NCBI GenBank assembly: GCA_036495645.1
Contig: DASXMN010000011.1
Location: 62,940-126,939 of the forward strand
Direction of reading: 5' to 3'
DNA length: 64,000 nt
Source of the DNA: Candidatus Angelobacter sp.
GTDB taxonomy: Bacteria; Acidobacteriota; Terriglobia; Terriglobales; Acidobacteriaceae
This document shows positions 14,335-55,856 of the stretch, one piece after another; positions within the stretch are counted from its first letter, which is position 1, and each line of letters opens with the position of its first letter. The translations under genes and the position numbers were made by a program. The notes below the pieces were generated by a model, which searched no databases, had not been told where the DNA came from, and was given only the letters and a program-made list of their open reading frames with translations.

Positions 14335-14342
14335 CTCACTTC

Positions 14343-38000: not shown

Positions 38001-38162
38001 CTCAGGGCTGATTCCGGCTTGTTCCAATTCTTGGTCAGAGAAAAACGACGTTGCTTCAATTCCCTGGTACAGGTTCTCCCAGAACCGCTGGAGATTGGGG
38101 GCCTGGGGAAATCGTCCCGCCATGCCGATGATTGCTATTCCGTCAAGTGCGTCCCTGGTCAT
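34965..38162 (-). CDS. type I polyketide synthase module: KS-AT-carrier (no KR/DH/ER)
   Basis: 1065 aa. The KS has DGIAIIGMAGRFP and the active-site block TACSTSL. The AT has GYSIGE (nt 36201-36218) and HAFHS. The carrier domain is PCP-like (YVAPRNFTEQKIVEIWEELLGV...FLRLGGNSLLAIRV). The start ATG overlaps the NRPS2 stop (ATGA). Confidence 0.95.
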   Translation of the reverse strand: MTRDALDGIAIIGMAGRFPQAPNLQRFWENLYQGIEATSFFSDQELEQAGISPELLRHPNYVKARGVLQDADLFDAGFFGYSPREAELTDPQVRLFLECAWEALESAGWEPEKFLGMIGVYAGMSFTSYIWQLAGEEMEGDSVSAFRLLMGGAEKDHLATTVSYRLNLRGPSFNIQTACSTSLAAVHAAARAVMTYECDMALAGGATVSVPQRCGYMYESGGIASADGHCRSFDADASGSVSGDGVGVVLLKRLEDAVADGDTVYAVIKGSAVNNDGRRKVGFTAPAVEGQAEVIAMALAAAEVECASIGYIEAHGSATTMGDPIEIAALNQAYGQAALKSASIAVGSVKSSLGHLNAAAGVAGLIKTILSLQHGYIPPSLNFRKANPKIPFERGPFRVNHTLSPWPESNKPRRAGVSSFGIGGTNVHVILEEAPKTKPSEPARSWQLIMISARSRQALERATDQLAAHLLQHPEQNFADVAFTLQQGRKAFEHRRMVVSRDASAAITLLQARTPSQVFTAVAPSGRRPVAFLLPGLGDQYLDMGRGLYESEPEFARHVDHCSEFLKPLLGVDLRKTMYPDSRVRQQNEVRTEERMNFRNLVQRARDESSPALQEIHRTLWAQPALFIIEYALAKLWMSWGVVPESMMGYSIGEYVAACLAGVISLEDSLRMLAVRAQRIEALAPGAMLAIAASEEEIRPLLTPEISMAGINGKSLCVVAGTLEAIDALQQRLLREGELVCRRLLATHAFHSPLMAPVAEELTRIARSIRLSPPKIPYISNVTGKPITDSEATDPTYWARHLTQPVQFAAGLQQMCSPSAPVFLEIGPGQMLTSLAEQYLGGRGLADRVALASLPHASDAQPDRAFILSTLGNLWLAGIEPDWIGVHRNERRNRVPLPTYPFERQSYWHTPSRRRKEKREAEPAKANAMAAPFTHEIVASNQGTQPEGNGMVNSRSYLSAEYVAPRNFTEQKIVEIWEELLGVHPIGIHDEFLRLGGNSLLAIRVAAELREAFQIEFPLGALLKSGTVSEIALFVEDALLTMIENMDESALSGMETNDVRPSAGD

Positions 38163-41100
38163 GGTGTCTGTATCCTTCTTAACTTTTGTACGGCGCTTTT
38201 TTGCCGCTCCGCCCGGTTCCGTGTTTCACGGGACTTCCCCTCAAAATTGTAACCCGCGTGAAGAAAGCGGACGAGAGAATCAATCGTGGGAAATTGAAAG
38301 AGATGCAGGAGTTCAATCTCAACCGAAAGTTCCGCGCGCAGTTTCTGATGGAGCTGGATCATGAGGAGCGAATGCCCGCCAAGATCAAAAAAGTTGTCAT
38401 GCACTCCCACCTGATCTACCCCGAGGGCGGTCTGCCATGCAGTGGCAATGGTTTGTTCCAATTCGGTTCGCGGGAGCACAAACTCCGTGGTTAATTGCTC
38501 CTGGCCCAGAACGGACAATGCGGCTCGATCCACCGCACCTCTGGCATTCTGCGGCAACTCCTGCAACGTAATGAAAGCGTCTGGAATCATGTAGGGAGGT
38601 AGCTTGTCATCAAGGAAGCTGCGCAGCTCATTCTGACCCAATCTCTTTCCGTTGTGGACCACGACATAAGCAATCAGTTCGCCATTGGGACGTACAACGA
38701 CCGCCGCTTCCTGCACGCTTTCGTAATTCGCCAGCACGGCTTCAATTTCTCCCAACTCGATCTCGACGCCCTCCATCTCTACCCGATCATCAAGTCTGCC
38801 CATAAGTTCGATAGTTCCATCCTTTCTGTATCGAGCACGCTCTCCGGTTCCACACATACGCCCACCCATTTCCGATGTAAACGGATTGGGAAGAAACTTC
38901 TCCGCCGTCAGTGACGGCCGCCCCATGTAACCACGGCCCGCGGCAGGTCCGGCAATCCACAGCTCCCCTGGAACGCCAATGGCAACCCGCTGCAGGTGCG
39001 GATCGAGGACGTAGATCTCTGCGTTGCCGCGTGGCCTGAATCTGGTTCGTTCTCCTTCTGCAAACGACGTGAGAAAGGCAGAGCTGGAGACCAGAAAAGA
39101 ACTTGACGTTAAACGCGACAAGATTTCCGGACAGCTATTCTCTTGGGCATGCCCATTTTGGTTCGCCGTATCAGCGGCCTCGCACTCCAATACAAGATCC
39201 ATCAGCGCGCTGTGCTCAAGCATCAGACCTTTGGCGTGTCCCTCCTGTGCGCCGGTATAGATGACACAAGCGAGGTTCCGGGGATTGATGTGAACATCAG
39301 GGTTTGTTGCGCTGTGCTGCCCTATCATCTCCCATTCCGAATCCAAACAAACCACGGGCGCATTGGTCTGCGGGAGACGCTTGCGCAGGCCCTCCAGGGT
39401 CAGCAACACGTCAACGTCAGAACTCTCAAGAATGACCCGCAGACGATCTTTAGGATTCAGGATGTCCAGAGGCAGATAGGCCCCACCGGCTTTTAGCACT
39501 CCCATGGTGGCCACCATCATCTCCTGCGAATGCGGCATGAAAATGCCGACCATTGATTCCGGCGCCACTCCCATGCGGGCGAGATAATGCCCAACTTGGT
39601 TGGCCCGGCGGTTCAGATCCCCATAGCTGAATTGCGTTTCGCCAAAAGTTGCAGCCGATTCTTGCGGCCGGTGTTCTGCTTGCGCATCGAAAATCTCGGT
39701 GACGTTGTTCTCCGGGCGAGAGACCAGGCCAACTTCGTTCCAACTGGACAAAACCCTCTCGTCCAACTCGCTCATCATGGGCAATGCCCAAACCGGTTGG
39801 TCGGCGTCTGCAACGATTCCCTCCAGCAGACGCTCATAACGTTGCAACATCTGGCGGATGGTCTCGGCCTCAAATAAGTCTCTGCTGTAGTTAAGGCCAA
39901 TCACTGCGCTCTGCCTGGCCTCTTCCACGCCCATAATAAGATCGAACTTAGAAGTACCAGGGTCCAGTGCGAACGGGACCAACTCCAACCCTCCTAATTC
40001 CGACTTACCCGCAACTGCCCGGCGCAACGTAAACGCCACTTGAAAAACAGGGGTACGGCTAACCTCACGGTCCGGCGCCAGATCTTCCACCAATTTTTCA
40101 AATGCCAGGTCCTGATGTTCGTACCCGCTCAGCACCGCCTCCCGTACTCGCCGCAGCACCTCGCGGAAGGTGGGTTCTCCGCCCAAGTTCGCGCGTATCA
40201 CCAGCGTGTTCAGAAAAAAACCAATCAACCCTTTCGTCTCTTTCCGCTTGCGATTGGCCACCACCGTGCCGACTCCAAAATCCTCCTGCCCGCTGTATCT
40301 CATCAACAGCACCTGGAACGCCGCCAGCAGGGTCATGAGCAAGCTGGCCTTTTCTGTCCTCCCGACCGCATTCAAACCTTCCAACAAATCGCTTCGCAAA
40401 ATTCCCTGCTCTGTCCCTCCGCGAAAACTCTCCCGCGCTGGCCGCACATAGTCCGTCGGCAACTCCAGCACTTGCGGCATCCCGGCTAACTGTCGTTTCC
40501 AGTACTCCATCTGCTGCTGGAACTTCCCTCCACGCAGCCCTTCTCTCTGCTCCAGCGCATACTCCCCATATTGCATTTCCAATTCCGGCAGCGGCGACTC
40601 TTCTCCTCTCCCATACGCCTCATACAATTTTCCCAACTCCTCCATGAATACGCCCAAAGACCAGTCATCACAGACAATGTGGTGCAGCGTCAGGCCCACA
40701 ACATGCTCCCTGTCTCCCGTCTGCACCAACACTCCTCGCAGCAAAGGCGCATGGCCTAAATCAAATGCTTTTCCAGCCTGTTCCGCCAGAACCTTCTTCG
40801 CCTGCTCCTCTCGCTCGCCTGCCTCTAGCGCCCGCAAGTCCACTACCGGCAATCGTAGGTCGAGCTGCTCCGCAAGAACTTTCTGGCTTGGTTCTTCGTG
40901 TTCGTCCGTCACAAAGCAGGTCCGCAGGACTTCATGTCGCCGCACCAGTTCCTGAAAACTCCGTTCCAGCCGAGGAACGTCCAAGTCGCCTTTGAGCTTC
41001 CAGGTCATAGGCACGTTGTAGAACGCATTGCCGGGATTGAACCGGTCCAGAAACCAAAGCTGCTCCTGCTGGTAGGAAAGCGGGAAGACAGAGAGTCTTG

Positions 41101-44100
41101 AGGCAGCAGCTCTCTGCGCCGGTTTGACGCCTTTGTCGGCTCCTGATTTCCTTCCCGGCAATTTCAAGCCAAGCTCTATCACCTCTGCCAGTTCCACAAG
41201 GGTTGGTGATTCAAATATCGCTCGTACCGGAACATCTATTCCAAACGCGTTCTCCATTCTGGTCGCCAATAATGTCGCAAGCAATGAGTGTCCGCCCAGG
41301 TCAAAGAAATTATCGTGTCGTCCAACGCGCGTGATTTCCAGCGCCTCGGCCCAAATCTGCGCCAATTGCTCCTCTACCTCAGTATGAGGAGCTTCGTAGT
41401 GCTCAGCTCCCAAATCCAGATCCTCAAACTTTTCCAGTGCCTCCCGGTCTACCTTCCCATTGCCCGAGAGCGGCAACTCGTGCAAGGTCACGATGAGGCT
41501 TGGAACCATGTACGCTGGAAGCTTGCCTTTCAGGTCTCGCCGCAACTCATCACGGTCCCGCTCTCCAACCACATACGCCACCAGCCGTTTACTTCTATTT
41601 GCGCCAGTCTTCGCCACCACTGCACAGCCCCGTATCCCGCTCTGCTGTTGCAGCATCGCCTCAATCTCTCCCAATTCCACGCGGTAACCGCGTATCTTCA
41701 CCTGGGAATCATTCCGTCCAATAAATTCGATCGTCCCATCCGGACGCCATCTCCCAAGGTCTCCTGACCTATACATCCGCGATCCCTCTTCATTGGCAAA
41801 CCGATTCTTAAGAAAACGCTTTTCTGTCAAATCTGGACGGTTCAAATACCCTCGCGCGACGCCCGCTCCCCCAATGTACAGTTCTCCTGCCACTCCCACC
41901 GGAACGAACTGCTCGTACTTATCCACTATGTAAATCTGCGCATTCGCAATTGGGCGCCCGATCGGCGGCAACAGGGGCCAACGGTTCCTTTCCATACTCA
42001 AATGGAATGCAGATGCAGCGTGGGTTTCTGTCGGACCATAATGGTTGTTCAACCGGCAGTGCTCCAGGCGCGTAAAGAGTCCTTTTATCTTGTCATTGAT
42101 GCGCAGTTGCTCCCCGGCTACGTTTATTTCCTGCAGTGCACAAGCGAAAGGCTCTTTGCCGATCTGGGCCACGCCATCGGCAAACATTTGCAGCCCAACA
42201 TAGGGAAGAAATAAGCGCTGGATGCCTTTCTCTATCACATAGCGCGTCATGTCTGTGGCGTTGCGTCTCTTCTCTTCATCGATCAGGACCAAAGTCCCGC
42301 CTGCGCATAAGGTGCTGAAGATCTCTTGAAATGAAACGTCAAACCCGAGTGCGGAAAACTGCAAGGTGCGCTGTGGTCCAGTCCACGCTGATTCATTCAT
42401 CTGCCACATAATCATGTTCATCGCGGCACGCGCCGGCATGGCAACGCCTTTGGGCAGACCAGTAGAACCCGACGTATAGATGACGTATGCCAGGTCCTTG
42501 GCGCTCAATCCAATGGTGGTGTGCTCCGGGTTCGAGTCGGGTTGGTTACTCCACGGCTCTGCGCCTCTCAGGTCAATCAACTTCAAGTCCTCTCTGACTT
42601 CCGTGAACAACCCGCGAAGATGGCTTTGGGTCAACAACACCCCCGGCCTGCTGTCCTCCAGCATGAATCGCAACCGCTCTTCCGGATATGCAGGATCCAT
42701 CGGTACGTATGCCCCTCCCGCCTTCATCACGGCAAGCAGCCCTACAATCATTTCCAGGCTGCGGTCCACGCATACGGCTACCAGCGTGTCCGGTTTCACC
42801 CCCAACGCTCGCAGATAATGGGCTAACCGGTTGGCCTGGCGATTCAAATCACCATATTTAAATTTCTGCCCTTCGTACTCCACCGCCACAACATTCGGTG
42901 TCTTCGCCGCATGCTCTTCGAACAATCTTCCGATGGTCTTGTCGCGCGGATAGTCTCTGGCGGTCTGATTCCATCTTTCCAGTTGCTCCCTCTCGGGCTC
43001 GGTCAACAAGGGCAGGTTCCACACCCGCTGCTCCGGATTTTCCACCACCGCCTTCAGTAACTGCTCGTAATGTCCCAGCATCCGCTGGATAGTTTCCGCT
43101 TCAAACAAGTCAGTGGCGTAGTTGATCGTAACCGCTGCGCCCTGCGTGGCCTCCTGCACACTTATGACGAGATCGAACTTAGACATCCCAATATCTATCT
43201 CGAAGCCGCTCAACCCCAATGCCCCGAATTCCAATGGGTCGGGCTCGCCCAGCGTCGTAAACAGCACTTGAAATATGGGGGTACGGCTGACATCACGGTC
43301 GGGCGCCAATTCTTCCACCAATTTTTCAAATGACACATCCTGATGCGCGTACCCGCCCAGCGCCGCCTTACGCACTTGCCGTAGAACTTCACGGAAGCTG
43401 GGCCCGCTGCTCAAATTTGCGCGTATCACCAGCGTGTTCAGGAAGAAACCGATGATTTGTTCCATCTCTATCCGCTTACGGTTTGCTACTACTGTTCCAA
43501 TTCCAAAATCCTCCTGCCCGCTATACCTCATCAGCAGCACCTGGCACACCGCCAGCAGCGTCATGAATAAGCTGGCCCGCTCTCCCTTTCCCACGGCATT
43601 TACGCCTTCCAGCAGGTCGCTGCTTAGGCTTCGCTGCTCAATCCCTCCACGGAAACTCTGCCGCGCCGGCCGCACATGGTCCGTCGGCAGCTCAAGCACT
43701 TGTGGCATTCCTTCCAACTGCCCTTTCCAATACTCCATCTGCTGCTCTAACCCTCCTCCACGCAACCCTTCCCTCTGCTCCAGCGCATACTCTCCATATT
43801 GCATTCCCAATTCCGGCAGCGGCGACTCTTCTCCTCTTCCATACGCCTCATACAATTTTCCTAACTCACTCATCAATATTCTCAACGACCAGTCGTCACA
43901 AATAATGTGGTGCAGCGTCAGCCCCAAAACGTGCTCCCTTTCTCCCATCCGCACCAATAGTCCCCGCAACAACGGCGCTTGGGTTAAATCAAAGGCCTTG
44001 CTACCCTCTTCCGCTATAATCTTCTTCGCCTGCTCCTCTCGCTCACTTGCCTCTAACTGCCGCAAATCCATTACCGGCAACCGCACATCGACTTTCTCCC

Positions 44101-47100
44101 CAACAACTTTCTGCTTCAGGTCTTGATGTTCATCCATCACAAAGCAGGTCCGCAGGATTTCATGTCGCCGTACCACCTCCTGCAGACTCCGCTCCAATGT
44201 GGCGACGTCTAGATCGCCTTCGAGCCTCCAGGCCAAGGGCACGTTATAGAAGTCACTACTCGGCTCGAACCTGTCCAGAAACCAAAGCTGCTCCTGTTGA
44301 TAGGAAAGCGGAAAGAGAGAAGGTCTTGAACTGGAATTTGCCTGCTTCCGTGCTACGCCTTTATCACTTCGTGACTGCAAACTGCGCTCTATTACCTCTG
44401 CCAGGTCCGCAATCGTCGGGGACTCGAATATCGTGTGCACCTGAACATCTATTCCAAATGTGTCTCGAAACCTGGATACCATTGCGACCGCCAGCAGCGA
44501 GTGTCCGCCCAAATCAAAGAAATTATCATGCCGCCCGACTCGAGTAACTTCCAGCACCGCTGCCCAAATCTCCGCCAGTTCTTCCTCTATCGACGTTCGA
44601 GGGGCTTCGTAGTGCTGTGCTGAATCGTCCAAACCCAAATTTTCCAGCTTTTCCAACGCCTGCCGGTCTACCTTCCCATTGCTCGTGAGCGGCAGTTCCT
44701 GCAAACCCACTATGACACTCGGAACCATGTATGCCGGAAGCTTGCCTTTCAGATCGCGCCTTAAGCCCTCATAGTCCCCAACCACATATGCAATCAGCCT
44801 CTTACTTCCATTCGCACCAGACTTCGCCACCACCGCGCAGCCCCGTATCCCACTCTGCTGTTGCAGGATCGCCTCAATCTCTCCTAACTCAATTCGGAAA
44901 CCGCGGACCTTGACCTGAAGATCATTCCGTCCCACAAACTCGATTGTCCCGTCTCTCCGCCACCGCACCAGATCTCCCGTCCGGTACAATCGCCCTCCAC
45001 CCTCCTCGCTATACCGGTCCGGCACAAACCGCTCCGCCGTTAAATCCGGTCGCCGCAAATACCCCCGCGCTACACTCGCTCCCGCTACATACGCTTCTCC
45101 CACCACTCCTATCGGCACTACATTCATCGCTCGATCCAGCACATACATCCGCCGGTCTCCTATCGGCTTCCCGATGGGCAGTGAAATCACACTCTCCGGC
45201 AATTCCCCCGGCACCACATAGCAACTGCTGAATACCGTGCATTCCGATGGCCCATACCCGTTCACCACCCGCATTCCCGGCATCTCCGCCAGAGCCCTCT
45301 TGATGTGCGTCACCGACGCCGTCTCGCCCCCCGTCAGCAGATACTTCACTCCTTGCAGGCACTCCACATCGCTTTCCACAATCGAGTTCAACAGGGCCGC
45401 CGTCAACCACAGCGTATTCACTCCCCGCCCCTGCACGTACTTCCTGATCTCTTCTGCGCTCAAGATTCGCTGCTGCGCCAGTACGCTCCGTCCTCCCGTC
45501 AACAACGCCCCCCACAGCTCCAGTGTGAATGCGTCCCAGCTCACCGAGGAATGCTGCAGCAGCACCGTTTCTTCATCGAAACGCACATAATCAATTCCAA
45601 AAATGAATCCGGCAATACTGCGATGCGGAATCTCGCTCCCCTTCGGTTCTCCCGTCGATCCCGATGTGTAGATCACGTACGCAAGATTTTCAGCGTCCAC
45701 TCCCGTTTCCGCCCGCTCCAGGCTCGTCTCCGGCAAGCTCCTGAACGCATCCTCATTCGCTACATCGATAACCTGGATGCCTTCATGGATTCCACCTGCC
45801 AAATCCAGCAAACCCGGCCAATCACTTCTCACTAGCAGCGCCACCGGAGTGCTGTCCTCCAAAATGAATTGCAATCGTTCCCTGGGGTACGACAGATCCA
45901 GCGGCACATACGCTCCACCCGCCTTCAACACTGCCACCATCCCCACCACCATCTCCAATCCGCGCTCCACACCAATTGCTACGCGCGTATCCGGCCTCAC
46001 TCCAACGGTTCGCAGGTAATGCGCCAGCCGGTTGGCTCTGCGGTTCAGCTCCGCATACGTCAACTCCTGCCCTTGGTGCTCCACCGCCACGGCGTTCCCC
46101 ATTCTGGCCGCACATTCTTCGAACAACTCATGCACGCACTTCTGTCCGCCTTGCGTCTCCCCCAGGTTCCACTCCACTAAGAGCTGCCGTGTTTCATTCT
46201 TGGCTAACATTGCCAGGTCCCAAATTCGCTGCTCCGGATTCTCCACCACCGCCTTTAGCAGCCGCTCGTAATGGCCTAGCATCCACTCAATGGTCACTGC
46301 TTCAAACAGGTCAGTACTGTAGTTGAGCGCAAGCTTTGGCTCATTGGATTCTTCAACAATCATGGTGAAGTCAAATTTGGAATGTCTAATATCTGCTCCG
46401 AACTCGCTCAATTCCAATCCCGCAAATTTCGAGTCCGTGGGTCTGCGCACCGTAAACATTACTTGGATTAACGGGTTACGGCTGATGTCGCGGTCCGGAG
46501 CCAGTTCTTCCACCAGCTTTTCAAATGGCAGGTCCTGATGATCGTACCCGCTCAGCGCGGACTGCCGGACCTGCCGCAGTACTTCGCGGAAAGTCGGATC
46601 GCCTTCCAGATTCGCGCGTATCACCAGCGTGTTCAGGAAGAAGCCAATCAATTCGTGCGTGTTTGTCCGGCTGCGGTTAGCTATGGACGTGCCAACTCCA
46701 AAATCTTTCTGCCCGCTGTACCTCATCAGCAGCACCTGGTACGCCGCCAGCAACGTCATGAATAAGCTGGCCCCCTCAGCTCTCCCCAGTGCGCTCAAAC
46801 TTTCCAGCAAACCGCTTCCCAAACTTCGATTTTGTATTCCTCCGCGGAAACTCTGATGCGCCTGCCGCATATGGTCCGTCGGCAACTCCAGCACTTGTGG
46901 CATTCCGTCCAACTGTTTTTTCCAGTATTCCATCTGCTGCTGAAACTTCTCTCCACGCAGCCCTTCCCTCTGCTCCAGCGCATACTCCCCGTATTGCATT
47001 TTCAATTCCGGCAGCGGCGACTCTTCTCCTCTTCCATACGCCTCATACAACTTCTCTAACTCTTCCATCAATACTTCCAACGACCACTCATCACAGATAC

Positions 47101-47686
47101 TGTGGTGCAGCGTCAGCGTCAAAACATGCTCCGCTTCTTCCATGCGCACCAACACTCCCCGGAATAAGGGTGCCCGGCTTAAATCAAATGCCTTGCCGGC
47201 CTCCTCCGCTACAACCTTCTTCGCCTGCTCCTCTCGCTCGCGCGGCTCTAACCGCCGCAAATCCATCGCCGGCAACCGCACATCGAGTTTCTCCCCAACA
47301 ACCTTCTGCCTCGGTTTTTCCTGTTCGCCCATGACAAAGCAGGTCCGGAGGATTTCATGCCGGCGCACCACTTCCTGCAGGCTCCGTTCCAGCCGGGGAA
47401 CATCCAGGTCGCCTTTGAGCTTCAAAGTCATAGGCACGTTATAGAAGTCGCTACTGGGCTGGAACTGGTCGAGAAACCAAAGCTGCTCCTGCTGGCAGGA
47501 AAGCGGGAAAAGGGAAGGTCTTGTCCTTGAATCTTCTGATGAAGAAACGGGCAGTTGCTCCTGAGTCGCATCCCGCGGTGTCTGAGCGCTCGGAGCGCCA
47601 AGGCCCTCTTTCTCCAACAAACGCCGCAGCAGTTCCCGTTCTTCTTCCAACCGGTCTTTTTTCGGTACAACTCTTCCCGAAGCCAT
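38159..47686 (-). CDS. non-ribosomal peptide synthetase NRPS2: C-A-T-C-A-T-C-A*-T (third A domain decayed)
   Basis: 3175 aa. It has three closely related C domains (HHSICDEWS, HHIICDDWS, HHIVCDDWS). A1 and A2 have complete core motifs. The third A lacks the A4-A5 region and has mutated A3, A7, A8 and A10 motifs. Its three T domains are all FFDLGGHSLL. Confidence 0.95.
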   Translation of the reverse strand: MASGRVVPKKDRLEEERELLRRLLEKEGLGAPSAQTPRDATQEQLPVSSSEDSRTRPSLFPLSCQQEQLWFLDQFQPSSDFYNVPMTLKLKGDLDVPRLERSLQEVVRRHEILRTCFVMGEQEKPRQKVVGEKLDVRLPAMDLRRLEPREREEQAKKVVAEEAGKAFDLSRAPLFRGVLVRMEEAEHVLTLTLHHSICDEWSLEVLMEELEKLYEAYGRGEESPLPELKMQYGEYALEQREGLRGEKFQQQMEYWKKQLDGMPQVLELPTDHMRQAHQSFRGGIQNRSLGSGLLESLSALGRAEGASLFMTLLAAYQVLLMRYSGQKDFGVGTSIANRSRTNTHELIGFFLNTLVIRANLEGDPTFREVLRQVRQSALSGYDHQDLPFEKLVEELAPDRDISRNPLIQVMFTVRRPTDSKFAGLELSEFGADIRHSKFDFTMIVEESNEPKLALNYSTDLFEAVTIEWMLGHYERLLKAVVENPEQRIWDLAMLAKNETRQLLVEWNLGETQGGQKCVHELFEECAARMGNAVAVEHQGQELTYAELNRRANRLAHYLRTVGVRPDTRVAIGVERGLEMVVGMVAVLKAGGAYVPLDLSYPRERLQFILEDSTPVALLVRSDWPGLLDLAGGIHEGIQVIDVANEDAFRSLPETSLERAETGVDAENLAYVIYTSGSTGEPKGSEIPHRSIAGFIFGIDYVRFDEETVLLQHSSVSWDAFTLELWGALLTGGRSVLAQQRILSAEEIRKYVQGRGVNTLWLTAALLNSIVESDVECLQGVKYLLTGGETASVTHIKRALAEMPGMRVVNGYGPSECTVFSSCYVVPGELPESVISLPIGKPIGDRRMYVLDRAMNVVPIGVVGEAYVAGASVARGYLRRPDLTAERFVPDRYSEEGGGRLYRTGDLVRWRRDGTIEFVGRNDLQVKVRGFRIELGEIEAILQQQSGIRGCAVVAKSGANGSKRLIAYVVGDYEGLRRDLKGKLPAYMVPSVIVGLQELPLTSNGKVDRQALEKLENLGLDDSAQHYEAPRTSIEEELAEIWAAVLEVTRVGRHDNFFDLGGHSLLAVAMVSRFRDTFGIDVQVHTIFESPTIADLAEVIERSLQSRSDKGVARKQANSSSRPSLFPLSYQQEQLWFLDRFEPSSDFYNVPLAWRLEGDLDVATLERSLQEVVRRHEILRTCFVMDEHQDLKQKVVGEKVDVRLPVMDLRQLEASEREEQAKKIIAEEGSKAFDLTQAPLLRGLLVRMGEREHVLGLTLHHIICDDWSLRILMSELGKLYEAYGRGEESPLPELGMQYGEYALEQREGLRGGGLEQQMEYWKGQLEGMPQVLELPTDHVRPARQSFRGGIEQRSLSSDLLEGVNAVGKGERASLFMTLLAVCQVLLMRYSGQEDFGIGTVVANRKRIEMEQIIGFFLNTLVIRANLSSGPSFREVLRQVRKAALGGYAHQDVSFEKLVEELAPDRDVSRTPIFQVLFTTLGEPDPLEFGALGLSGFEIDIGMSKFDLVISVQEATQGAAVTINYATDLFEAETIQRMLGHYEQLLKAVVENPEQRVWNLPLLTEPEREQLERWNQTARDYPRDKTIGRLFEEHAAKTPNVVAVEYEGQKFKYGDLNRQANRLAHYLRALGVKPDTLVAVCVDRSLEMIVGLLAVMKAGGAYVPMDPAYPEERLRFMLEDSRPGVLLTQSHLRGLFTEVREDLKLIDLRGAEPWSNQPDSNPEHTTIGLSAKDLAYVIYTSGSTGLPKGVAMPARAAMNMIMWQMNESAWTGPQRTLQFSALGFDVSFQEIFSTLCAGGTLVLIDEEKRRNATDMTRYVIEKGIQRLFLPYVGLQMFADGVAQIGKEPFACALQEINVAGEQLRINDKIKGLFTRLEHCRLNNHYGPTETHAASAFHLSMERNRWPLLPPIGRPIANAQIYIVDKYEQFVPVGVAGELYIGGAGVARGYLNRPDLTEKRFLKNRFANEEGSRMYRSGDLGRWRPDGTIEFIGRNDSQVKIRGYRVELGEIEAMLQQQSGIRGCAVVAKTGANRSKRLVAYVVGERDRDELRRDLKGKLPAYMVPSLIVTLHELPLSGNGKVDREALEKFEDLDLGAEHYEAPHTEVEEQLAQIWAEALEITRVGRHDNFFDLGGHSLLATLLATRMENAFGIDVPVRAIFESPTLVELAEVIELGLKLPGRKSGADKGVKPAQRAAASRLSVFPLSYQQEQLWFLDRFNPGNAFYNVPMTWKLKGDLDVPRLERSFQELVRRHEVLRTCFVTDEHEEPSQKVLAEQLDLRLPVVDLRALEAGEREEQAKKVLAEQAGKAFDLGHAPLLRGVLVQTGDREHVVGLTLHHIVCDDWSLGVFMEELGKLYEAYGRGEESPLPELEMQYGEYALEQREGLRGGKFQQQMEYWKRQLAGMPQVLELPTDYVRPARESFRGGTEQGILRSDLLEGLNAVGRTEKASLLMTLLAAFQVLLMRYSGQEDFGVGTVVANRKRKETKGLIGFFLNTLVIRANLGGEPTFREVLRRVREAVLSGYEHQDLAFEKLVEDLAPDREVSRTPVFQVAFTLRRAVAGKSELGGLELVPFALDPGTSKFDLIMGVEEARQSAVIGLNYSRDLFEAETIRQMLQRYERLLEGIVADADQPVWALPMMSELDERVLSSWNEVGLVSRPENNVTEIFDAQAEHRPQESAATFGETQFSYGDLNRRANQVGHYLARMGVAPESMVGIFMPHSQEMMVATMGVLKAGGAYLPLDILNPKDRLRVILESSDVDVLLTLEGLRKRLPQTNAPVVCLDSEWEMIGQHSATNPDVHINPRNLACVIYTGAQEGHAKGLMLEHSALMDLVLECEAADTANQNGHAQENSCPEILSRLTSSSFLVSSSAFLTSFAEGERTRFRPRGNAEIYVLDPHLQRVAIGVPGELWIAGPAAGRGYMGRPSLTAEKFLPNPFTSEMGGRMCGTGERARYRKDGTIELMGRLDDRVEMEGVEIELGEIEAVLANYESVQEAAVVVRPNGELIAYVVVHNGKRLGQNELRSFLDDKLPPYMIPDAFITLQELPQNARGAVDRAALSVLGQEQLTTEFVLPRTELEQTIATAWQTALGVDQVGVHDNFFDLGGHSLLMIQLHQKLRAELSVEIELLHLFQFPTIDSLVRFLHAGYNFEGKSRETRNRAERQKSAVQKLRRIQTP
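38486..39703 (-). other. decayed adenylation domain (A*) of NRPS2 module 3
   Basis: This is aa ~2662-3067, about 405 aa against ~520 in the other A domains. A3 reads VIYTGAQEGHAKG instead of YTSGSTGxPKG. Only ~70 aa separate A3 from IYVLD (nt 38969-39271 is the collapsed core), so the FDxS and NxYGPTE motifs are gone. A7 is CGTGE, A8 is GRLDDRVEMEGVEIELGEIE and A10 is RGAVDR. Confidence 0.8.
44868..46237. repeat. A-core cassette copy in NRPS2 module 1 (partner at 53080-54449)
   Basis: The nucleotide sequence aligns by eye at a constant offset of 8212 nt with few mismatches. The antisense track ORFs 44944-45231 and 45237-45590 are near copies of 53156-53443 and 53449-53802. The copy spans from the C-A linker (EQRIWDLAML) to the A8 motif (VRGFRIELGEIEA). 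Confidence 0.85.
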
Positions 47687-47690
47687 CTCT

Positions 47691-50600
47691 TTAAAAACCC
47701 TTTCTAGAAGTCTTTTCCATCGTCAAACTTTCTTCTCTATGTTCTAGCTTCTCTGCCAGCAAGCGCACAGTGGGATAGGAGAAGAAGTCGACGAGCGCTA
47801 TATCCTTCTGCAGTTTCTCCCGCAGGTTGAAACGTACACGCGCCACCAGCAGCGAATATCCACCAAGATCGAAAAAGTTGTCATCGAGGCCAGCTCGTTC
47901 CACCCCCAGCGCCTCCTGCCATACACTGGCCACCATTTGCTCCAAAGGGGTCCGAGGCGCGACGTACGGATTTCTCGCTCTCCGTTCCGCCTTTCCGGTC
48001 TGGGTTACTCCCCGAATCTTTAACTGCTGTATCTCGCTCGCGCTCAAGATCTCCAGATCGCAGATAGGTTTCTTCAGATCCTGCATCGCCGCTGCCAGCA
48101 ATCGTTCGTAATATCTTGCCATTTGCTCTATGCGCCAGCGATCGAACAAATCCCGGTTGTAGATCCAGACGATGTCCAGTTGTCCATTGCGTTCAATGGC
48201 ATGGACCTCCAAATCAAAGCGCACGGTCCATGCTTCTGTTCCCAACTCCTCAACTTCCAGTCCTTTCAGTTCCTGAGTTCCCGAGGAAGCATTCTGCAGG
48301 GCAAAGACCACCTGGAAGATGGGCGTCCGATTTAAGCTGCGGCGCAATGGCAGGACCTCTACCAGCCGCTCAAACGGAATATGTTGATGCCGGTACGTCT
48401 CCAAGGCCAAATCGCGCACTTCCTCAAGGAGTTCTCCGAAACTGGCATTTGGGTTCACTTCCACTCGCATGACTAGCATGTTCGCGAAGAAACCGATCAG
48501 GCCTTCCAGACGCTCGTCCTGGCGGTTAGCAATGGGCGACCCAACCACGATGTCATCCTGCCCGCTATAGCGATGCATCTGAACAGCAAAAGCCGTGAGC
48601 AAAGTCATATATAAGGTGGAGCGGCCACATCGTTTCAATGCAGCTACTTTTTCCTGAGGCAAAGTTATTCCGCAGGCATCGGCAGCGTAAGTCTGTACCG
48701 GAGGACGTGGCCTGTCCTTGGGAATCTCCAGCTCTTCCGGTATTTCTGCCAGATGTTCTTGCCAGAACCGAAGGTCCTCATCTAGTCCCTCATTTGCATC
48801 CTGCATCTGCCACAAAGCAAAATCCGTGAATTGAAGCAGCAGGTCCGGCAATGGATTCTCGCGGCCCTGCGAGTACGCCTCATATAATTCCCTGAACTCC
48901 CGCATAAATATACCTAGCGACCATCCATCCGATACGATGTGGTGGAATGTTTGCAGGAGAATATGATTTTCTTCCGCCAGCTTAAGCAGCTTGAGTCGTA
49001 GCACAGGGCCATGCGCCAGATCGAATGGTTCACGCCATTCTTGATTCACGGACTCCATTACATGCCTCTGCTGCTCCGCTTCGGAAAGCCGGCTGAGGTC
49101 CTTGATTGGGATTTCAAAAGTAAGGTCGGGCGCAATGATCTGCACCGGCTCTCCCCGCTCTTCTGCGAAGTGTGTACGCAAGCTCTCATGCCGGTCCACA
49201 ATCGTCTGGACGGCGCGGCGTAGCGCATCCACATCCAACCTGCCGCGCAACCGCAGGGCCTCGGGCATGTTGTATTCCGCGCTGCTGCCTTGCAGTTCAT
49301 TGATGAACCATAACCGCCGCTGGGAATACGACAATGGCGCGTGCTCAGCTTTGGGATGGCGTCGCAGCGAGATCTGGGCTTTCCGGGCTCCCCCATCGTC
49401 TTGAAGTTGAGACGCTAATTTAGCGATCGTGGGTGATTCAAACACGCTGCGTAGCGCTACATCTATTCCCAAAGTAGCGCGGATTCGGCTTATCAGCCGG
49501 GTAGCCAGCAACGAGTGTCCGCCTATGGCAAAGAAATCATCATGCACACCCACCCGGTCCCGATTCAACACTTCCGCAAACAGACCACACAATATTTCTT
49601 CCTCGCCATTGCGTGGGCCTGTGTAGCCCCTTCTATCATCCCATTCTCTTTTCGGGGCGGGCAGTGCTTTGCGATCGACCTTTCCGTTTGGCGTCAACGG
49701 CAATTGTTCCATCTCCACAAAAGCAGATGGAACCATGTATTCGGGCAACCGCTCTTTCAGGAACTCCCTGAAAGCCTCCGCCCTCACCGCACCATTCTTG
49801 ATTACGTATGCCACTACTCGTTTTTCCGCGGGTTGATCTTCCCGGACTATTACGGCGCACGCCCTGACTCCCTCATGTGCCTGCAAAACCGCTTCAATCT
49901 CTCCCAGTTCGATACGGTAGCCCCGCACCTTCACCTGCTGATCCAATCGGCCGATGAATTCCAGATTTCCCTTCCGCCCCCATTTCACCTGGTCCCCTGT
50001 TCGATAGATCCGCTCTCCTCCGCGCTCAGAGAAGGGATTGGGAATGAACTTTTCCGCTGTCAAGTCCGGCTGGTTTAGATATCCGCGCGCGACTCCCTGG
50101 CCTCCCAAAAACAATTCGCCGGTCATGCCTATAGGTACGGGTTGATATTCCCTATCCAGAACGTAAGCTTGCGTATTGCTAATGGGCTTTCCTATCGGCA
50201 CTCTTTCATTTGTCTCGCCTTTTTCCAAACATGCATATGTGGAGTAGGTCGTATCCTCCGATGGTCCATACAGATTGAAAACCCGCTTTACCTTTAATTC
50301 TTCGTAGAGCTGTTCCACTGTGTTCGGCGGCAGAGCTTCTCCAGCCAGGTTCACAGTTTGAATCGAGTCGGGTACACCCTTGATTCGCAGCAACTCTGCC
50401 ATCGCTGAGGGTACCGTGTTGAGCAACTTCACTCCGGACTCTTGCTCCATCTCGGCCAGGTTCAACGCATCGCGTACCACGATTGTCTTTCCACCCCAAC
50501 TGAGAGGAGCAAAAATTTCAAATACCGAGAGGTCAAAACAAATGGATGTGGACGCCAGAACTCCGCCCAATTCTTCTGCCGAGAAGACCTCCCGCGCCCA

Positions 50601-53600
50601 TTGCAACAGCGCATTCGCACTACCGTGCTGGACGGCCACGCCTCTTGGCCTGCCCGTGGAGCCCGATGTGTAAATTACATAGACAAGATTTTCCGGATAA
50701 AGTGGAAGCCCAACATCCTTCCCGCTCTCATGCGCTATCTCAACAAGTTCCTTATCAATACAAATCACCTTCGGCGATCCGAGCAACTGCTCCAATAAGC
50801 CGCTCTGGGTCACCAGCACTGCAATGGATGAATCCTCCACCATGAATTTGAGACGTTCCACTGGGTAATGAGGGTCCAGCGCGACATAGGCTCCGCCTGC
50901 CTTGAGAATTCCCAGCAACCCGATCACCATCTCCAGACTGCGCTCCATGCAGAGTCCCACCCGCACTTCCGGCCCCACTCCCAGCTTCCTTAAATAATGT
51001 CCCAGTTGATTTGCTCTCCGGTTCAGCTCGCCATACGTTAACTTCTGTCCCTCAAACTCCACTGCTGGCGCTTCCGCGCTTCTCCCCACCTGATCTTCGA
51101 ACAACTCATGCATGCACTTCGGGGGATAGGGCGCATCCGTCCGGTTCCACTCGTATAAAATCTGATACCGCTCGCTCTTCGGCAACAAGTCCAGACAATC
51201 CACTATCTGTCCGCTCCCGGCGACCATACCTTCCAGAATGCGACGCCAATATCCCATGTAGCGTTCGATCCTTGCTCTCTCATAAAGCGCCGTGGAATAT
51301 TCCACACCACCGGCAATTCGTTCATCCATTTCCCACAATGAAACCGTTAGATCAAACCGCGCTACGCGATGCGTCGCCATCTCCAGTCCCATCGTCTTCA
51401 ACCCAACAAGATCCAACGCGCCTCTGGGAGCGTTTTGCCAGGCAAACATCACCTGAAACAATGGACTGTGGGCCAGGCTGCGTTCCGGCTGCACAATTTC
51501 CACCACCTGCTCAAAGGGAATGTCTTGGTGTTGCTGTGCTCCTAACGATCGGCTCTTCACACGTTCCAGCAGTTCCCCTACACGAGGTCTGTGGGATAAA
51601 TCCGTCCGCAGCACCAGCGTGTTCACAAAAAATCCGATCAGCCCCTCAAGCTCTTCTTGTCCCCGGTTGGCAACCGGCGTCCCAATCAATACGTCCTGCT
51701 GCCCCGATAACCGCCCCAGCAGCACCGCCCACCCCGCGAGAAGGGTCATATATAAGGTGGCGCCATGCTGCTTGCTCAACTCCTTTAGCCCTGTCGTCAA
51801 CTCTTCATCCAGCATCATCTCGTGCCATGCGCCCGCATACTCCTGGTCCGCTGGCCGCACATGGTCCGCAGGTAACTCAAGCAACGCCGGCGCCCCTGCC
51901 AGTGTGGTTTGCCAGTACTCAGCCTGCTGTCTTAGAACTTCCCCCTGCATCCAATGCCGCTGCCACACCGCGTAGTCTGGATATTGCACAGCTAACTCCG
52001 GCAACGGATCGGCTTCCCCGCGTACAAATGCCCGGTACAATACGCTCAATTCGTTGAGCAACACCGCTACTGACCAGCCATCGGAAACGATGTGGTGCAT
52101 GGTAATGAGCAGCGCATATTGATCCTCTCCCTCCCGGATCAGCAGCCCACGAATCAGCGGACCGGCTTCCAGATCAAAACTCGCATGCGCCTCTTCTTCA
52201 AGTAGTTGTCGTAATCCCGATTCCGAATCCACCTGTTGGCACAAATCCTGATCTCGCAAATCATGGTCACGCAATAAAAAATGGCTGTCCTCGACGGCTG
52301 CAATCCGTTGCAGTGCTTCGCCATCCACCACCACGAATGTGGTGCGCAACGCTTCATGACGCTGCACGAGCCGATCCAGAGCCAGGCCCAATGCATGCCG
52401 GTCCAGCTTGCCCACGAGACGTACGCCAAAGGGAATGTGATAGACCTCGCTTACCGCTTTCATCTGCGCCAGGAACCACAACCGCTGCTGTGCGTAAGAA
52501 AGAGGAAGAGGCCGCTTGCGATCAGCTTTCGTGATCGGTGGCAATTGCGTCTGTCTGCCGCCTGAGATCTTGCTGGCTAATTCACTCAGACGGGAATGCT
52601 CGAATACCTCGCCGATTTCAACTTCCAATCCGAGCATTTCCCTCAACCGCCCAATCATGGTTATCGCAAGCAACGAGTGCCCGCCTAATTCAAAAAAGTT
52701 GTCGTTCCGCCCCACCTTTGCTGCTCCAAGCAATTCCCGCCAAATCGCTACCAGCGTGGTCTCAATTTCTCCTTGTGGTTCCTCATATCCATTCGCCGAA
52801 TACGCATTTCCATCCGGGGCTGGTAAGCGCTTCCGGTCCAGCTTCCCGTTGGGCGTCAGCGGCAATGCCTCAAGCCGCACATACGCCGCCGGCACCATGT
52901 ACTCTGGCAGTCTTTGTGCCAGATGGCTGCGCAATTCTTCTGCTCCGAGCTTTCTTCTGCCATCGCTCTGCTGAAGATCACTTGCGCCTTCCGTGTAATA
53001 AGCCACCAGACGCTTGCTCCCAGCCACATCTTCCTGCGCTATTACTACCGCTTCTCTCACTCCCTCATATTCCAACAGCCGCGCTTCAATCTCTCCTAAC
53101 TCAATTCGGAAACCGCGCACCTTGACCTGAAGATCATTTCGTCCTACAAACTCGATTGTCCCATCTCCCCGCCACCGCACCAGGTCTCCCGTCCGGTACA
53201 ATCGCCCTCCACCCTCCTCGCTATACAGGTCCGGTACAAACCGCTCCGCTGTCAAATCCGGTCGCCGCAAATACCCCCGCGCTACACTCGCTCCCGCTAC
53301 ATACGCTTCTCCCACCACTCCTATCGGCGCTACGTTCATCGCCGCATCCAGCACATACATCCGCCGGTCTCCTATCGGCTTCCCGATGGGCAGCGAAATT
53401 AATGTTTCAGGCATTTCCGCCGGCACCACATAGCAACTGCTGAATACCGTGCATTCCGATGGCCCATACCCGTTCACCACCCGCATTCCCGGCAACTCCT
53501 CCATCGCCCGCCGGATGTGCATCACCGACGCCGTCTCTCCCCCGGTCAGCAAATACTTCACCCCTTGCAGACACCCCACATCGCTTTCCACAATCGAGTT

Positions 53601-55856
53601 GAACATGGCCGCCGTCAACCACAGCGTATTCACTCCCCGCCCCTGCACGTACTTCCTGATTTCTTCAGCACTCAAGACTCGCTGCTGCGCCAGTACGCTC
53701 CGTCCTCCGGTCAGCAACGCCCCCCACAGCTCCAGCGTGCATGCATCCCAACTCACCGAAGAATGCTGCAACAGCACCGTTTCTTCATCGAAGCGCACAT
53801 AGTCAGTTCCCAAAATGAATCCGGGAATACCGCGATGCGGAATCTCGCTCCCCTTCGGTTCCCCGGTCGATCCCGATGTGTAGATCACGTAGGCAAGGCA
53901 TTCAGCGTCCACTCCCGTCTCAGTTGGCTCCAGGTTCGTCTCCGGCAGATTCGTGAACACATCCTCACTTGCTAAATCGATAACCTGGATGCCTTCATGA
54001 ATTGCACTCGCCAAATCCGCCAACCCCGGCCAATCATTTCGTACCAGCAGCGCCACCGGAGTGCTATCCTCCAAAATGAATTGCAAGCGTTCCACGGGGT
54101 ACGATAGGTCCAGCGGCACATACGCTCCGCCTGCCTTCAACACTGCCACCATCCCCACCACCATCTCCAGTCCACGCTCCACGCCAATCGCCACTCGGGC
54201 ATCCGGCCTTACTCCAACGGTTCGCAGGTAATGCGCCAGCCGGTTGGCTCTGCGGTTCAGCTCGGCATACGTCAACTCCTGCCCTTGGTGCTCCACCGCC
54301 ACGGCGTTCCCCATTCTGGCCGCACATTCTTCGAACAACTCATGCACGCACTTCTGTCCGCCTTGCGTCTCCCCCGGGTTCCACTCCACTAAGAGCTGCC
54401 GTGTTTCATCCTGAGTCAACATCGCCAGGTCCCAAATTCGCTGCTCCGGTCCGTCCAGGGTGGCAGCCATTAAAAGCCCAAAGTGCTGAAGCATGCGCTG
54501 AATTGTGTCTGCCTCAAACAATCCAGTGTCGTAGTTAAACGCCAGTTTGGGAATTTCATCATCTACCGCAAGTAGCGCCAAATCGTACTTGGAGGTAGCG
54601 GTTTCCCACACCATCGGACGCATCTCCACACCTGGAAGCTCAAGCGATATGGCCTTGCCGTTCATGAACGTAAACGTCACCTGAAACAGGGGCGAGCTAC
54701 TCATCTGCCGCTCCGGCGACAATTCCTCGACCAGTTTCTCCAAGGGCAAATCCTGATGATCGAATGCATCCAGCGTCGCTTTTCTCACCCGCCCGAGCAC
54801 TTCCCTAAAAGTCGGTTCGCACCTTAAATCAGCCCGCATGATCAGAGTGTTCACGCAGAATCCGATCATGCCCTCTGTCCGCACGTGGCTGCGGTTCGCT
54901 ATTGGCGTTCCCACTCCGAAGTCCGCCTGTCCCGTATACCTAAGCAGCAGCACCTGGTAGATCGCCAGCACTGTCATAAACACGCTGGCGCCTTCCTGTT
55001 GGCTGAACCACTTCATTTTTTCCCAATAGTCCCTGGCAATCGTTACCGCCTCCGTGCTGCCACGATGTTGGGGGATGGCAGGCCGCGGCTTGTCCATGGG
55101 CAACTCTAAAAGTTCCGGCATTCCAGTCAACTGTTTCGTCCAGTACTCCATCTGATGGGCGAAAACTTCTCCCTGCAGCCATTGGGTCTGCCACAACGTG
55201 TAGTCCGCATATTGGAGCGGCATCTCTTTGAGCGGCGATTCCTGCCCTTGTACATAGGCCCCGTAGAGCAATGCCATTTCCTGGTGCAACACTCCCATTG
55301 ACCACTCATCCACTACGATGTGATGAATGCTCAATGCCAGAACATGTTCCCGCTCTCCTAACCGGATCATCACTCCACGCAACAAAGGTGCGCTTTCCAG
55401 ATCGAACGGCTTTGCTGCTTCCTGCCTCACGATCTCCTGCGCCTGTTTTTTTCTGTCCTCGGCGCCCTCATGCTTGCTCAAATCCAGCAGTTGCAGCCGG
55501 AACTCTATTGATTCCTCGACCTTCTGCACTGGCTCGCCGTCCTCTATCACAAAACTCGTCCGCAAAGCTCCGTGCCGCCGAATGATCTCTGCCAAACTCC
55601 GCTCCAGAGCCCGCACGTTCAAATCCCCGTGCAGCTCACACGCCAGCACGACGTTGTAGAAGTCACTGCTCGGTTGCAGACGGTCCAGAAACCAAAGGCG
55701 CTTTTGCGCCCAGGAAAGCGGTAGCCGCTCCCGAGTTTCTGCTGAAGCAATTTCCCAGTCTTGGGGGCCAAGACCCTCTTTCTGCAGCAAAAGATGCAGC
55801 AGTTCCCGCTCTTCTTCCGCCTGATCTTTTTTCAACACAGTTCTTTCAGGAGACAT
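47691..55856 (-). CDS. non-ribosomal peptide synthetase NRPS1: C-A-T-C-A-T-C-T (last module has no A domain)
   Basis: 2721 aa. C1 is HHIVVDEWS, A1 has YTSGSTGEPKG and T1 is FFELGGHSL. C2 is MHHIVSDGWS, A2 has YTSGSTGRPRG and T2 is FFAIGGHSL. C3 is FHHIVSDGWS. About 29 aa after C3 comes T3 (FFDLGGYSLL), and the protein then ends. Confidence 0.95.
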   Translation of the reverse strand: MSPERTVLKKDQAEEERELLHLLLQKEGLGPQDWEIASAETRERLPLSWAQKRLWFLDRLQPSSDFYNVVLACELHGDLNVRALERSLAEIIRRHGALRTSFVIEDGEPVQKVEESIEFRLQLLDLSKHEGAEDRKKQAQEIVRQEAAKPFDLESAPLLRGVMIRLGEREHVLALSIHHIVVDEWSMGVLHQEMALLYGAYVQGQESPLKEMPLQYADYTLWQTQWLQGEVFAHQMEYWTKQLTGMPELLELPMDKPRPAIPQHRGSTEAVTIARDYWEKMKWFSQQEGASVFMTVLAIYQVLLLRYTGQADFGVGTPIANRSHVRTEGMIGFCVNTLIMRADLRCEPTFREVLGRVRKATLDAFDHQDLPLEKLVEELSPERQMSSSPLFQVTFTFMNGKAISLELPGVEMRPMVWETATSKYDLALLAVDDEIPKLAFNYDTGLFEADTIQRMLQHFGLLMAATLDGPEQRIWDLAMLTQDETRQLLVEWNPGETQGGQKCVHELFEECAARMGNAVAVEHQGQELTYAELNRRANRLAHYLRTVGVRPDARVAIGVERGLEMVVGMVAVLKAGGAYVPLDLSYPVERLQFILEDSTPVALLVRNDWPGLADLASAIHEGIQVIDLASEDVFTNLPETNLEPTETGVDAECLAYVIYTSGSTGEPKGSEIPHRGIPGFILGTDYVRFDEETVLLQHSSVSWDACTLELWGALLTGGRSVLAQQRVLSAEEIRKYVQGRGVNTLWLTAAMFNSIVESDVGCLQGVKYLLTGGETASVMHIRRAMEELPGMRVVNGYGPSECTVFSSCYVVPAEMPETLISLPIGKPIGDRRMYVLDAAMNVAPIGVVGEAYVAGASVARGYLRRPDLTAERFVPDLYSEEGGGRLYRTGDLVRWRGDGTIEFVGRNDLQVKVRGFRIELGEIEARLLEYEGVREAVVIAQEDVAGSKRLVAYYTEGASDLQQSDGRRKLGAEELRSHLAQRLPEYMVPAAYVRLEALPLTPNGKLDRKRLPAPDGNAYSANGYEEPQGEIETTLVAIWRELLGAAKVGRNDNFFELGGHSLLAITMIGRLREMLGLEVEIGEVFEHSRLSELASKISGGRQTQLPPITKADRKRPLPLSYAQQRLWFLAQMKAVSEVYHIPFGVRLVGKLDRHALGLALDRLVQRHEALRTTFVVVDGEALQRIAAVEDSHFLLRDHDLRDQDLCQQVDSESGLRQLLEEEAHASFDLEAGPLIRGLLIREGEDQYALLITMHHIVSDGWSVAVLLNELSVLYRAFVRGEADPLPELAVQYPDYAVWQRHWMQGEVLRQQAEYWQTTLAGAPALLELPADHVRPADQEYAGAWHEMMLDEELTTGLKELSKQHGATLYMTLLAGWAVLLGRLSGQQDVLIGTPVANRGQEELEGLIGFFVNTLVLRTDLSHRPRVGELLERVKSRSLGAQQHQDIPFEQVVEIVQPERSLAHSPLFQVMFAWQNAPRGALDLVGLKTMGLEMATHRVARFDLTVSLWEMDERIAGGVEYSTALYERARIERYMGYWRRILEGMVAGSGQIVDCLDLLPKSERYQILYEWNRTDAPYPPKCMHELFEDQVGRSAEAPAVEFEGQKLTYGELNRRANQLGHYLRKLGVGPEVRVGLCMERSLEMVIGLLGILKAGGAYVALDPHYPVERLKFMVEDSSIAVLVTQSGLLEQLLGSPKVICIDKELVEIAHESGKDVGLPLYPENLVYVIYTSGSTGRPRGVAVQHGSANALLQWAREVFSAEELGGVLASTSICFDLSVFEIFAPLSWGGKTIVVRDALNLAEMEQESGVKLLNTVPSAMAELLRIKGVPDSIQTVNLAGEALPPNTVEQLYEELKVKRVFNLYGPSEDTTYSTYACLEKGETNERVPIGKPISNTQAYVLDREYQPVPIGMTGELFLGGQGVARGYLNQPDLTAEKFIPNPFSERGGERIYRTGDQVKWGRKGNLEFIGRLDQQVKVRGYRIELGEIEAVLQAHEGVRACAVIVREDQPAEKRVVAYVIKNGAVRAEAFREFLKERLPEYMVPSAFVEMEQLPLTPNGKVDRKALPAPKREWDDRRGYTGPRNGEEEILCGLFAEVLNRDRVGVHDDFFAIGGHSLLATRLISRIRATLGIDVALRSVFESPTIAKLASQLQDDGGARKAQISLRRHPKAEHAPLSYSQRRLWFINELQGSSAEYNMPEALRLRGRLDVDALRRAVQTIVDRHESLRTHFAEERGEPVQIIAPDLTFEIPIKDLSRLSEAEQQRHVMESVNQEWREPFDLAHGPVLRLKLLKLAEENHILLQTFHHIVSDGWSLGIFMREFRELYEAYSQGRENPLPDLLLQFTDFALWQMQDANEGLDEDLRFWQEHLAEIPEELEIPKDRPRPPVQTYAADACGITLPQEKVAALKRCGRSTLYMTLLTAFAVQMHRYSGQDDIVVGSPIANRQDERLEGLIGFFANMLVMRVEVNPNASFGELLEEVRDLALETYRHQHIPFERLVEVLPLRRSLNRTPIFQVVFALQNASSGTQELKGLEVEELGTEAWTVRFDLEVHAIERNGQLDIVWIYNRDLFDRWRIEQMARYYERLLAAAMQDLKKPICDLEILSASEIQQLKIRGVTQTGKAERRARNPYVAPRTPLEQMVASVWQEALGVERAGLDDNFFDLGGYSLLVARVRFNLREKLQKDIALVDFFSYPTVRLLAEKLEHREESLTMEKTSRKGF
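47745..49340 (-). other. A-less C-T module at the C-terminus of NRPS1
   Basis: C3 is aa ~2173-2604 (nt 48045-49340). T3 is aa ~2631-2704 (nt 47745-47966), with its carrier Ser codon at 47853-47855. The C-to-T linker is only ~29 aa, so no A domain can be present. Confidence 0.85.
53080..54449. repeat. A-core cassette copy in NRPS1 module 1 (partner at 44868-46237)
   Basis: Evidence is the same as for the partner copy. The left edge of similarity is at CAATCTCTCCTAACTCAATTCGGAAACCGCG and the right edge is at AAATTCGCTGCTCCGG. Confidence 0.85.

Follow-up and report, generated by a model that had tools for sequence, protein, structure and literature searches.

The 64,000-nucleotide stretch analysed here (the window; GC content 54.4%) belongs to a Candidatus Angelobacter metagenome-assembled genome (MAG), labelled G000, and its minus strand bears a hybrid nonribosomal peptide synthetase (NRPS)-polyketide synthase cluster. 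Two consecutive genes of this cluster, NRPS1 (N1) and NRPS2 (N2), carry closely similar adenylation (A) domain cores in their first modules, and recurrent gene conversion between N1 and N2 very probably keeps these two A-cores alike. More than one swap is involved: an older shared block (query nt ~109-1370) was lengthened, and its copies made alike again, by several later events that occurred independently in several genomes. Coordinates are window positions unless a locus, contig or query is named, and both copies of the A-core cassette lie on the minus strand (Table 1).

An earlier note had described the similarity as a fixed offset of 8212 nt with scattered mismatches, limited by the linker between the condensation (C) and A domains on one side and motif A8 on the other. 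Both points held: positions 44868-46237 and 53080-54449 match at 1253 of 1370 sites (91.5%) with zero indels, the exact edges of the block are 44870 and 46237, and at the protein level the block runs from PEQRIWDLAML in the C-A linker to GFRIELGEIEA at motif A8. Self-BLASTn of the window, proposed in the same note, ranked this pair top (E value 0). Identity at the same offset falls to ~25-30% in the low-coordinate flank; in the high-coordinate flank it is 50-60% over ~150 nt and at background level beyond, so that sharp breaks between the block and its flanks were found in place of a uniform identity profile across whole modules. By minus-strand codon position, the 117 mismatches are 64 third, 29 first and 24 second; the longest exact run between the copies is 111 nt, at 46053-46163, and the 41 of 456 residues that differ include none at specificity-code positions. 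In the group of relatives to which G000 belongs, the block starts ~38 residues ahead of the Pfam AMP-binding match. In an alignment to GrsA, with the numbering checked by K517 falling in place, its end corresponds to about PheA residue 446-447, ~18 residues beyond the A8 (Acore/Asub) hinge. What had been called an 8.2-kb direct repeat is actually a 1.37-kb direct repeat spaced 8.2 kb apart, and the product expected of the deletions that it might promote (N1 C1, core, N2 Asub-T) was seen in no relative examined.

The block and its flanks differ greatly in age. Using a codon alignment of all N1 and N2 modules for both identity and synonymous divergence (dS), we obtained for N1 module 1 versus N2 module 1 a block dS of 0.237, with a non-synonymous divergence (dN) of 0.046 and dN/dS ~0.19, while dS between the same two modules is saturated in both the C1 flank and the flank formed by Asub and the thiolation (T) domain (Asub-T). 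A dS of 0.24 against saturated flanks indicates that the block is younger and not merely more constrained. Identity and synonymous divergence both break sharply inside the module. The C domain of N2 module 1 is closest to those of N2 modules 2 and 3 (~80% nucleotide identity, dS ~0.66), its Asub-T has its nearest counterpart in N2 module 2 (~78%, dS 0.95), and its A-core in N1 module 1. The earlier note was therefore right about the direction of the flank relationships, although 'near copies' of module 2 was too strong a description; its statement that the N2 module-2 A-core is quite different was borne out, this core being only 40-60% like the block.

A search of 79 genomes of the genus gave homologues of the block (E value ≤1e-100) in 22. 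We took the orthologous clusters from these relatives and labelled each core N1 or N2 by its flanks, which group by position (orthologues 72-93% identical, paralogues 43-57%). Three groups emerged. In group A (G000, G027, G101, G017 and G093), identity between the two copies within a genome is 91-97% and the shared tract extends over the first 108 nt as well. In group B (G002, G019, G063, G076, G077, G095 and G096), the similarity between the copies (76-82% identity) is confined to query nt 109-1370, the first 108 nt being unrelated (40-46%). In group C (G021, G082 and G073), an unrelated N2 module-1 core sits between a C1 and an Asub-T that are orthologous to those of G000.

The phylogeny of the block follows the genome and not the position in group A. 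All ten group-A copies form one clade in the maximum-likelihood tree of the block (support 100), within which the paralogues pair by genome in G101 (100), G017 (100) and G093 (83) and the two G000 copies are neighbours; the N2 copies of group B form a separate clade (support 99). The approximately unbiased (AU) test rejected a by-position topology for the group-A copies (difference in log likelihood 461, p = 8e-11), as well as a tree in which all N2-position copies were forced together (p = 5e-49). Synonymous divergence between paralogues is 0.237 in G000, 0.088 in G101 and 0.60-0.74 in group B. The orthologue dS between G000 and its closest sampled species, G027, is 0.32-0.36 and thus above the paralogue dS of G000.

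The earlier note had also proposed a recombination test on the aligned modules, for which we used our own GENECONV-like permutation test (longest run of agreeing polymorphic sites, 28 pairs, 5000 permutations). The four within-genome pairs rank 1-4 of 28. The observed run was reached in 0/5000 permutations for G000 and for G101, with p = 4e-4 for G017 and p = 0.04 for G027. In G000, 37 consecutive polymorphic sites agree, defining the youngest conversion tract (Table 1). The G027 orthologues are only 84-92% identical across this tract, indicating that it is younger than the split from G027, and the location of the tracts differs from genome to genome, indicating independent events. Taken with the dS contrast, the block tree and the AU rejection, this supports the A-core swap or gene conversion that had been suggested for the window.

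The edges of the exchanged segment also carry information on its direction. The 3′ edge falls at the same residue in every genome examined, directly after GFRIELxEIEA, where N1 continues with RLLEY and N2 with ILQQQSG; Asub and the T domain thus lie outside the exchanged segment. The 5′ edge falls just before motif A1 in group B, in which the seven genomes with the older block still have their native C-A linker, and at the start of the C-A linker in group A, making the shared region ~110-175 nt longer in the latter. In G000, G027, G101 and G017, the shared tract starts from PEQRIWDLAML and includes the EWN linker motif. This linker stretch is N1-type in both G000 copies (0.81 and 0.74 to the group-B N1-type versus 0.41 and 0.36 to the N2-type), while the next 75 nt, the A1 region (ELFEECAARM..VAVEHQGQELTY), is N2-type in both (0.75 versus 0.52). 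An N1-type linker followed by an N2-type A1 region in both copies suggests that exchange went both ways at the 5′ end.

Several points weigh against this interpretation or narrow it. The trees assume a recombination-free block, yet the block is itself a mosaic. The trees of the flanks N1_C2, N2_C2 and N2_A2core mutually conflict about species relationships, so some of the similarity between genomes may reflect interspecies exchange and not descent. A tree with group A as sister to the N2-type clade was not rejected (AU p = 0.154), and the direction of transfer is readable from the first ~175 nt only, the N1 and N2 types being too alike in the remaining block. Substrate prediction for the two modules uses the 10-residue code alone. 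Support for the assembly of this MAG across the repeat is indirect, and with an exact run of 111 nt, a short-k assembler could in principle swap inner parts of the two copies. As to the flank trees, that of N2_C2 is strongly at odds with those of N1_C2 and N2_A2core, and group A is one clade for the block and not for N1_C2. This conflict suggests that conversion has also taken place between N2 C domains, or that parts of the cluster have passed from species to species.

Of the other explanations, the one that fares best, though we regard it as improbable, is that the A-core was swapped or duplicated once, long ago, after which the copies diverged independently in the ordinary way and conversion did not continue. 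Seven genomes look just as this would predict, with copies 76-82% identical (dS 0.60-0.74) and N2 copies in a clade of their own (support 99). For G000, it is already contradicted: paralogues pair by genome in five genomes including G000 and the by-position tree is rejected, the tract tests pick out exactly the within-genome pairs, the G000 paralogue dS is below the orthologue dS to G027 and the shared region has been lengthened in its group.

That an assembler doubled one real A-core or made a chimera of two is very unlikely. The genome is a MAG with exact runs of up to 111 nt within the block, and several short-read MAG contigs end inside it (G008:C1 and C2; G014:C3 and C336; G080:C30 and C33; G083:C820; G093:C219 and C232; G095:C701), often near query nt 880-1020. 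Against an artefact stand the 117 differences between two copies that both maintain an open frame under purifying selection, and the recurrence of the same arrangement: in at least seven assemblies made independently, one contig bears the two copies ~8.2 kb from each other, and the flank types and junction residues are the same in all of them. In three of those assemblies (G101, G027 and G096) the contigs are large, and two show indel-type frame breaks typical of long reads. The short-read contigs that end inside the block themselves indicate that the repeat is real and troublesome to assemblers. Straight-through translation revealed unbalanced single-base indels and many in-frame stops (12, 6 and 13) in the G027 N1 core (L036, ~14258-15626) and the G096 N1 and N2 cores (L047); these stops are probably long-read indel errors and not signs of pseudogenes.

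Separate import of the same core into both modules from a third donor, either another cluster or another organism, has an equally slim chance. G095 does have the core family in a third module, the same site has received unrelated cores in G021, G082 and G073, and the group of G000 is one clade for the block and not in the N1_C2 flank tree. Nevertheless, by-genome pairing in several genomes would require repeated parallel double imports, and neither a third copy nor a close donor is present in the G000 genome, where the next best match is 72% over <300 nt. The GC content at third codon positions (GC3) of the block equals that of the adjoining C domains, and a foreign origin on grounds of composition was rejected on the same basis. 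Least credible of all is that old duplicates owe their likeness solely to selection for a common substrate, either strong purifying or convergent, an idea that the identical specificity code and the dN/dS of ~0.19 might favour; protein selection does not reduce dS, so the dS contrast already contradicts it, and same-code orthologues of other species are more diverged synonymously than the paralogues.

Recurrent conversion, then, would operate as follows. The block comprises the A-cores of module 1 in two successive NRPS genes, paralogous cores with a common predicted specificity, which recurrent non-reciprocal homologous recombination between genes 8.2 kb apart, presumably of a RecA type, would homogenise. 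Conversion tracts would end where homology ends, just past A8 at the 3′ end and at a 5′ limit that appears to have shifted outward in the group of G000, leaving the C domain and the Asub-T of each module to retain their own, much older histories. The same positions also serve other species as a natural exchange unit, through which unrelated cores entered N2 module 1 and the cassette was copied into a third module.

The idea of natural exchange-unit boundaries, also raised in the earlier note, was substantiated by the relatives, in which orthologous modules carry unrelated A-cores between conserved C and Asub-T regions. In G021, the N2 module-1 core (locus L037, 8865-10322) has the code DAWQYGLIDK, which is Gln-like, being one residue away from a Gln code given in PMC8313283. 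In two flank trees, this genome nests with G019 and G063, suggesting that its Gln-like core is a later replacement; the best match in the genus to this core is only 70% and lies in the same genome (G021:C87:33138-34357), so that no donor was found at genus level. In G082 and G073 (loci L052, 1791-6239 and L053, 1640-6097), the N2 module-1 code is DSALIAEVWK, listed as His in PMC12283262, and a methyltransferase domain (~440 aa) is inserted after A8. A recent intra-cluster origin of this His-like core was considered and rejected, as the X2 modules of this cluster match it at only 39-53% identity. Module 2 of the NRPS gene X2 in G000 has the same DSALIAEVWK code.

The cassette itself has travelled further in G095. 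The X2 module-1 orthologue of this genome (L058, 6690-8027) holds the cassette family from A1 to A7 at 73% amino acid identity, with an X2-type N-terminus on one side and, on the other, A7 just ahead of the X2 methyltransferase insert, and in the block tree it groups with the N2 copy of G014 (support 100). X2 module 1 is thus an apparent third landing site of the cassette in the same cluster. The replacements in G021 and in X2 of G095 end at A7 and not at A8. There is an even chance, in our judgement, that the cluster family is a natural combinatorial system in which one cassette has been copied among at least three modules (N1, N2 and X2 module 1) and the slot also takes Gln-like and His-like cores, the latter with a methyltransferase.

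Both A domains are predicted to be active NRPS adenylation domains of the ANL superfamily (PF00501). N2 residues 522-877 match the AMP-binding profile over positions 1-384 of 384 (E value 4e-80), and the whole N1 and whole N2 proteins both match it. A pattern search found motifs A3 (TSGSTGxPKG), A7 (YRTGD), A8 (GRxDxQVKxRGxRIE) and A10 (NGKxDR, with the catalytic Lys) in both copies; A5 reads NGYGPSE, and code position 517 is K in the A domains. The predicted code of both G000 cores is DALWLGGVFK and that of group B is mostly DALWMGGVFK, a code reported for domains that recruit L-allo-Ile (PMC13122637). From these codes, our best guess for the substrate of both modules is a branched aliphatic residue (Val-, Ile- or allo-Ile-like).

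Table 1. Positions of the two cassette copies, the genes that carry them and the flanking domains in the window
Feature	Position	Strand	Remarks
NRPS1 gene (N1)	47691..55856	-	2721 aa; C-A-T-C-A-T-C-T
NRPS2 gene (N2)	38159..47686	-	3175 aa; three C-A-T modules
A-core cassette, N2 module 1 copy	44870..46237	-	N2 aa 484-939; C-A linker through motifs A1-A8
A-core cassette, N1 module 1 copy	53082..54449	-	N1 aa 470-925; 91.5% identity to N2 copy
N2 module-1 condensation domain	46238..47521	-	~80% nt identity to N2 C2 and C3
N2 module-1 Asub (A9-A10) and T domain	44357..44860	-	~78% nt identity to N2 module-2 Asub-T
N1 module-1 condensation domain, N1-specific flank	54450..55736	-	55-65% nt identity to N2 C1, dS saturated
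N1 module-1 Asub and T domain, N1-specific flank	52557..53069	-	EIEA then RLLEY (N1) versus ILQQQSG (N2)
Youngest conversion tract in G000	45999..46197	-	2 mismatches in 199 nt; exact core 46053-46163; partner 54211-54409

The other main genes of the cluster in the window are a gene with ketosynthase, acyltransferase and T domains (KS-AT-T), a cassette of the hydroxymalonyl-acyl carrier protein type and the NRPS genes X1 and X2. N2 consists of three scaffold repeats, each beginning where A8 ends and taking in Asub, T and C, and ~76-81% identical to one another, around three different A-cores: the shared cassette, one with the code DVQFNAHAAK and one that is degenerate. The start regions of N1 and N2 (47597-47702 and 55767-55872) are also alike, being 77-78% identical with a dS of 0.42; the match covers the first ~30 codons and ~16 nt upstream, with no relationship in the 30 residues that follow. 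The pattern resembles a duplication of an N-terminal docking head together with a ribosome-binding region. No gene for an MbtH-like partner, a possible source of constraint on the two cores, was found on the G000 contig, and four such loci lie elsewhere in the genome.

The closest parallel is that of mcyB1 and mcyC in microcystin synthetase (Fewer et al. 2007, PMC2174460), where recombination likewise recurs between the first-module A domains of two adjacent genes, unrelated modules have, in other lineages, independently taken the place of the same A domain and transfer does not extend to the C domains. The present case differs in coming from Acidobacteriota with an uncharacterised product, in that both G000 copies have the same predicted specificity, which would make the conversion like-for-like, and in a converted tract that takes in part of the C-A linker. 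The pattern is also reminiscent of the Acore exchange units of Baunach et al. 2021 (PMC8097286): the Acore is targeted while Asub and the Asub-T interface are kept, breakpoints fall at conserved core motifs (here A1, A7 and A8) and one variant carries a methyltransferase insert between A8 and A9. Retention of the native C-A linker is a trend and not a rule in that study, and the group-A tract, G000 included, departs from it in one respect, beginning at the linker start so that the linker is not retained. This 5′ boundary at the end of the C domain is that of the 'linker + A domain' unit of Calcott et al. 2020 (PMC7486941), who found that it worked best experimentally and is a natural recombination hotspot; the 3′ edge differs from theirs, lying after A8 and neither at the A-domain end nor beside the binding pocket. 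An intragenomic donor and breakpoints within the A domain are also shared with the wollamide/desotamide NRPS (Booth et al. 2022, PMC9205934). That event changed specificity from Orn to Gly and was biochemically tested, whereas the G000 case is known from sequence alone; the same study noted homogenising gene conversion as a confounder.

The phenomenon is an ordinary one, well known for NRPS genes, and it changes no principle. Its practical value is modest; the junctions coincide with boundaries that had been put forward for engineering before. The uncultured soil genus Candidatus Angelobacter is noted for the number of its biosynthetic clusters (PMC9723581), and the evolution of clusters at the level of the A-core was not looked at in that paper; our analysis adds a clean, detailed multi-genome series in which A-cores of this Acidobacterial genus are converted and replaced. 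The repeat also accounts for the breaks that many short-read MAGs show here. If the combinatorial system is real, at least five independent events would define field-tested junctions (the linker start or A1 at the 5′ end, A7 or A8 at the 3′ end) that could guide the engineering of NRPSs from uncultured Acidobacteria. The core variants at one position (branched-aliphatic, Gln-like and N-methyl-His-like) predict a small family of related products, and such a system would give rise to species-specific peptide variants on an otherwise conserved scaffold.

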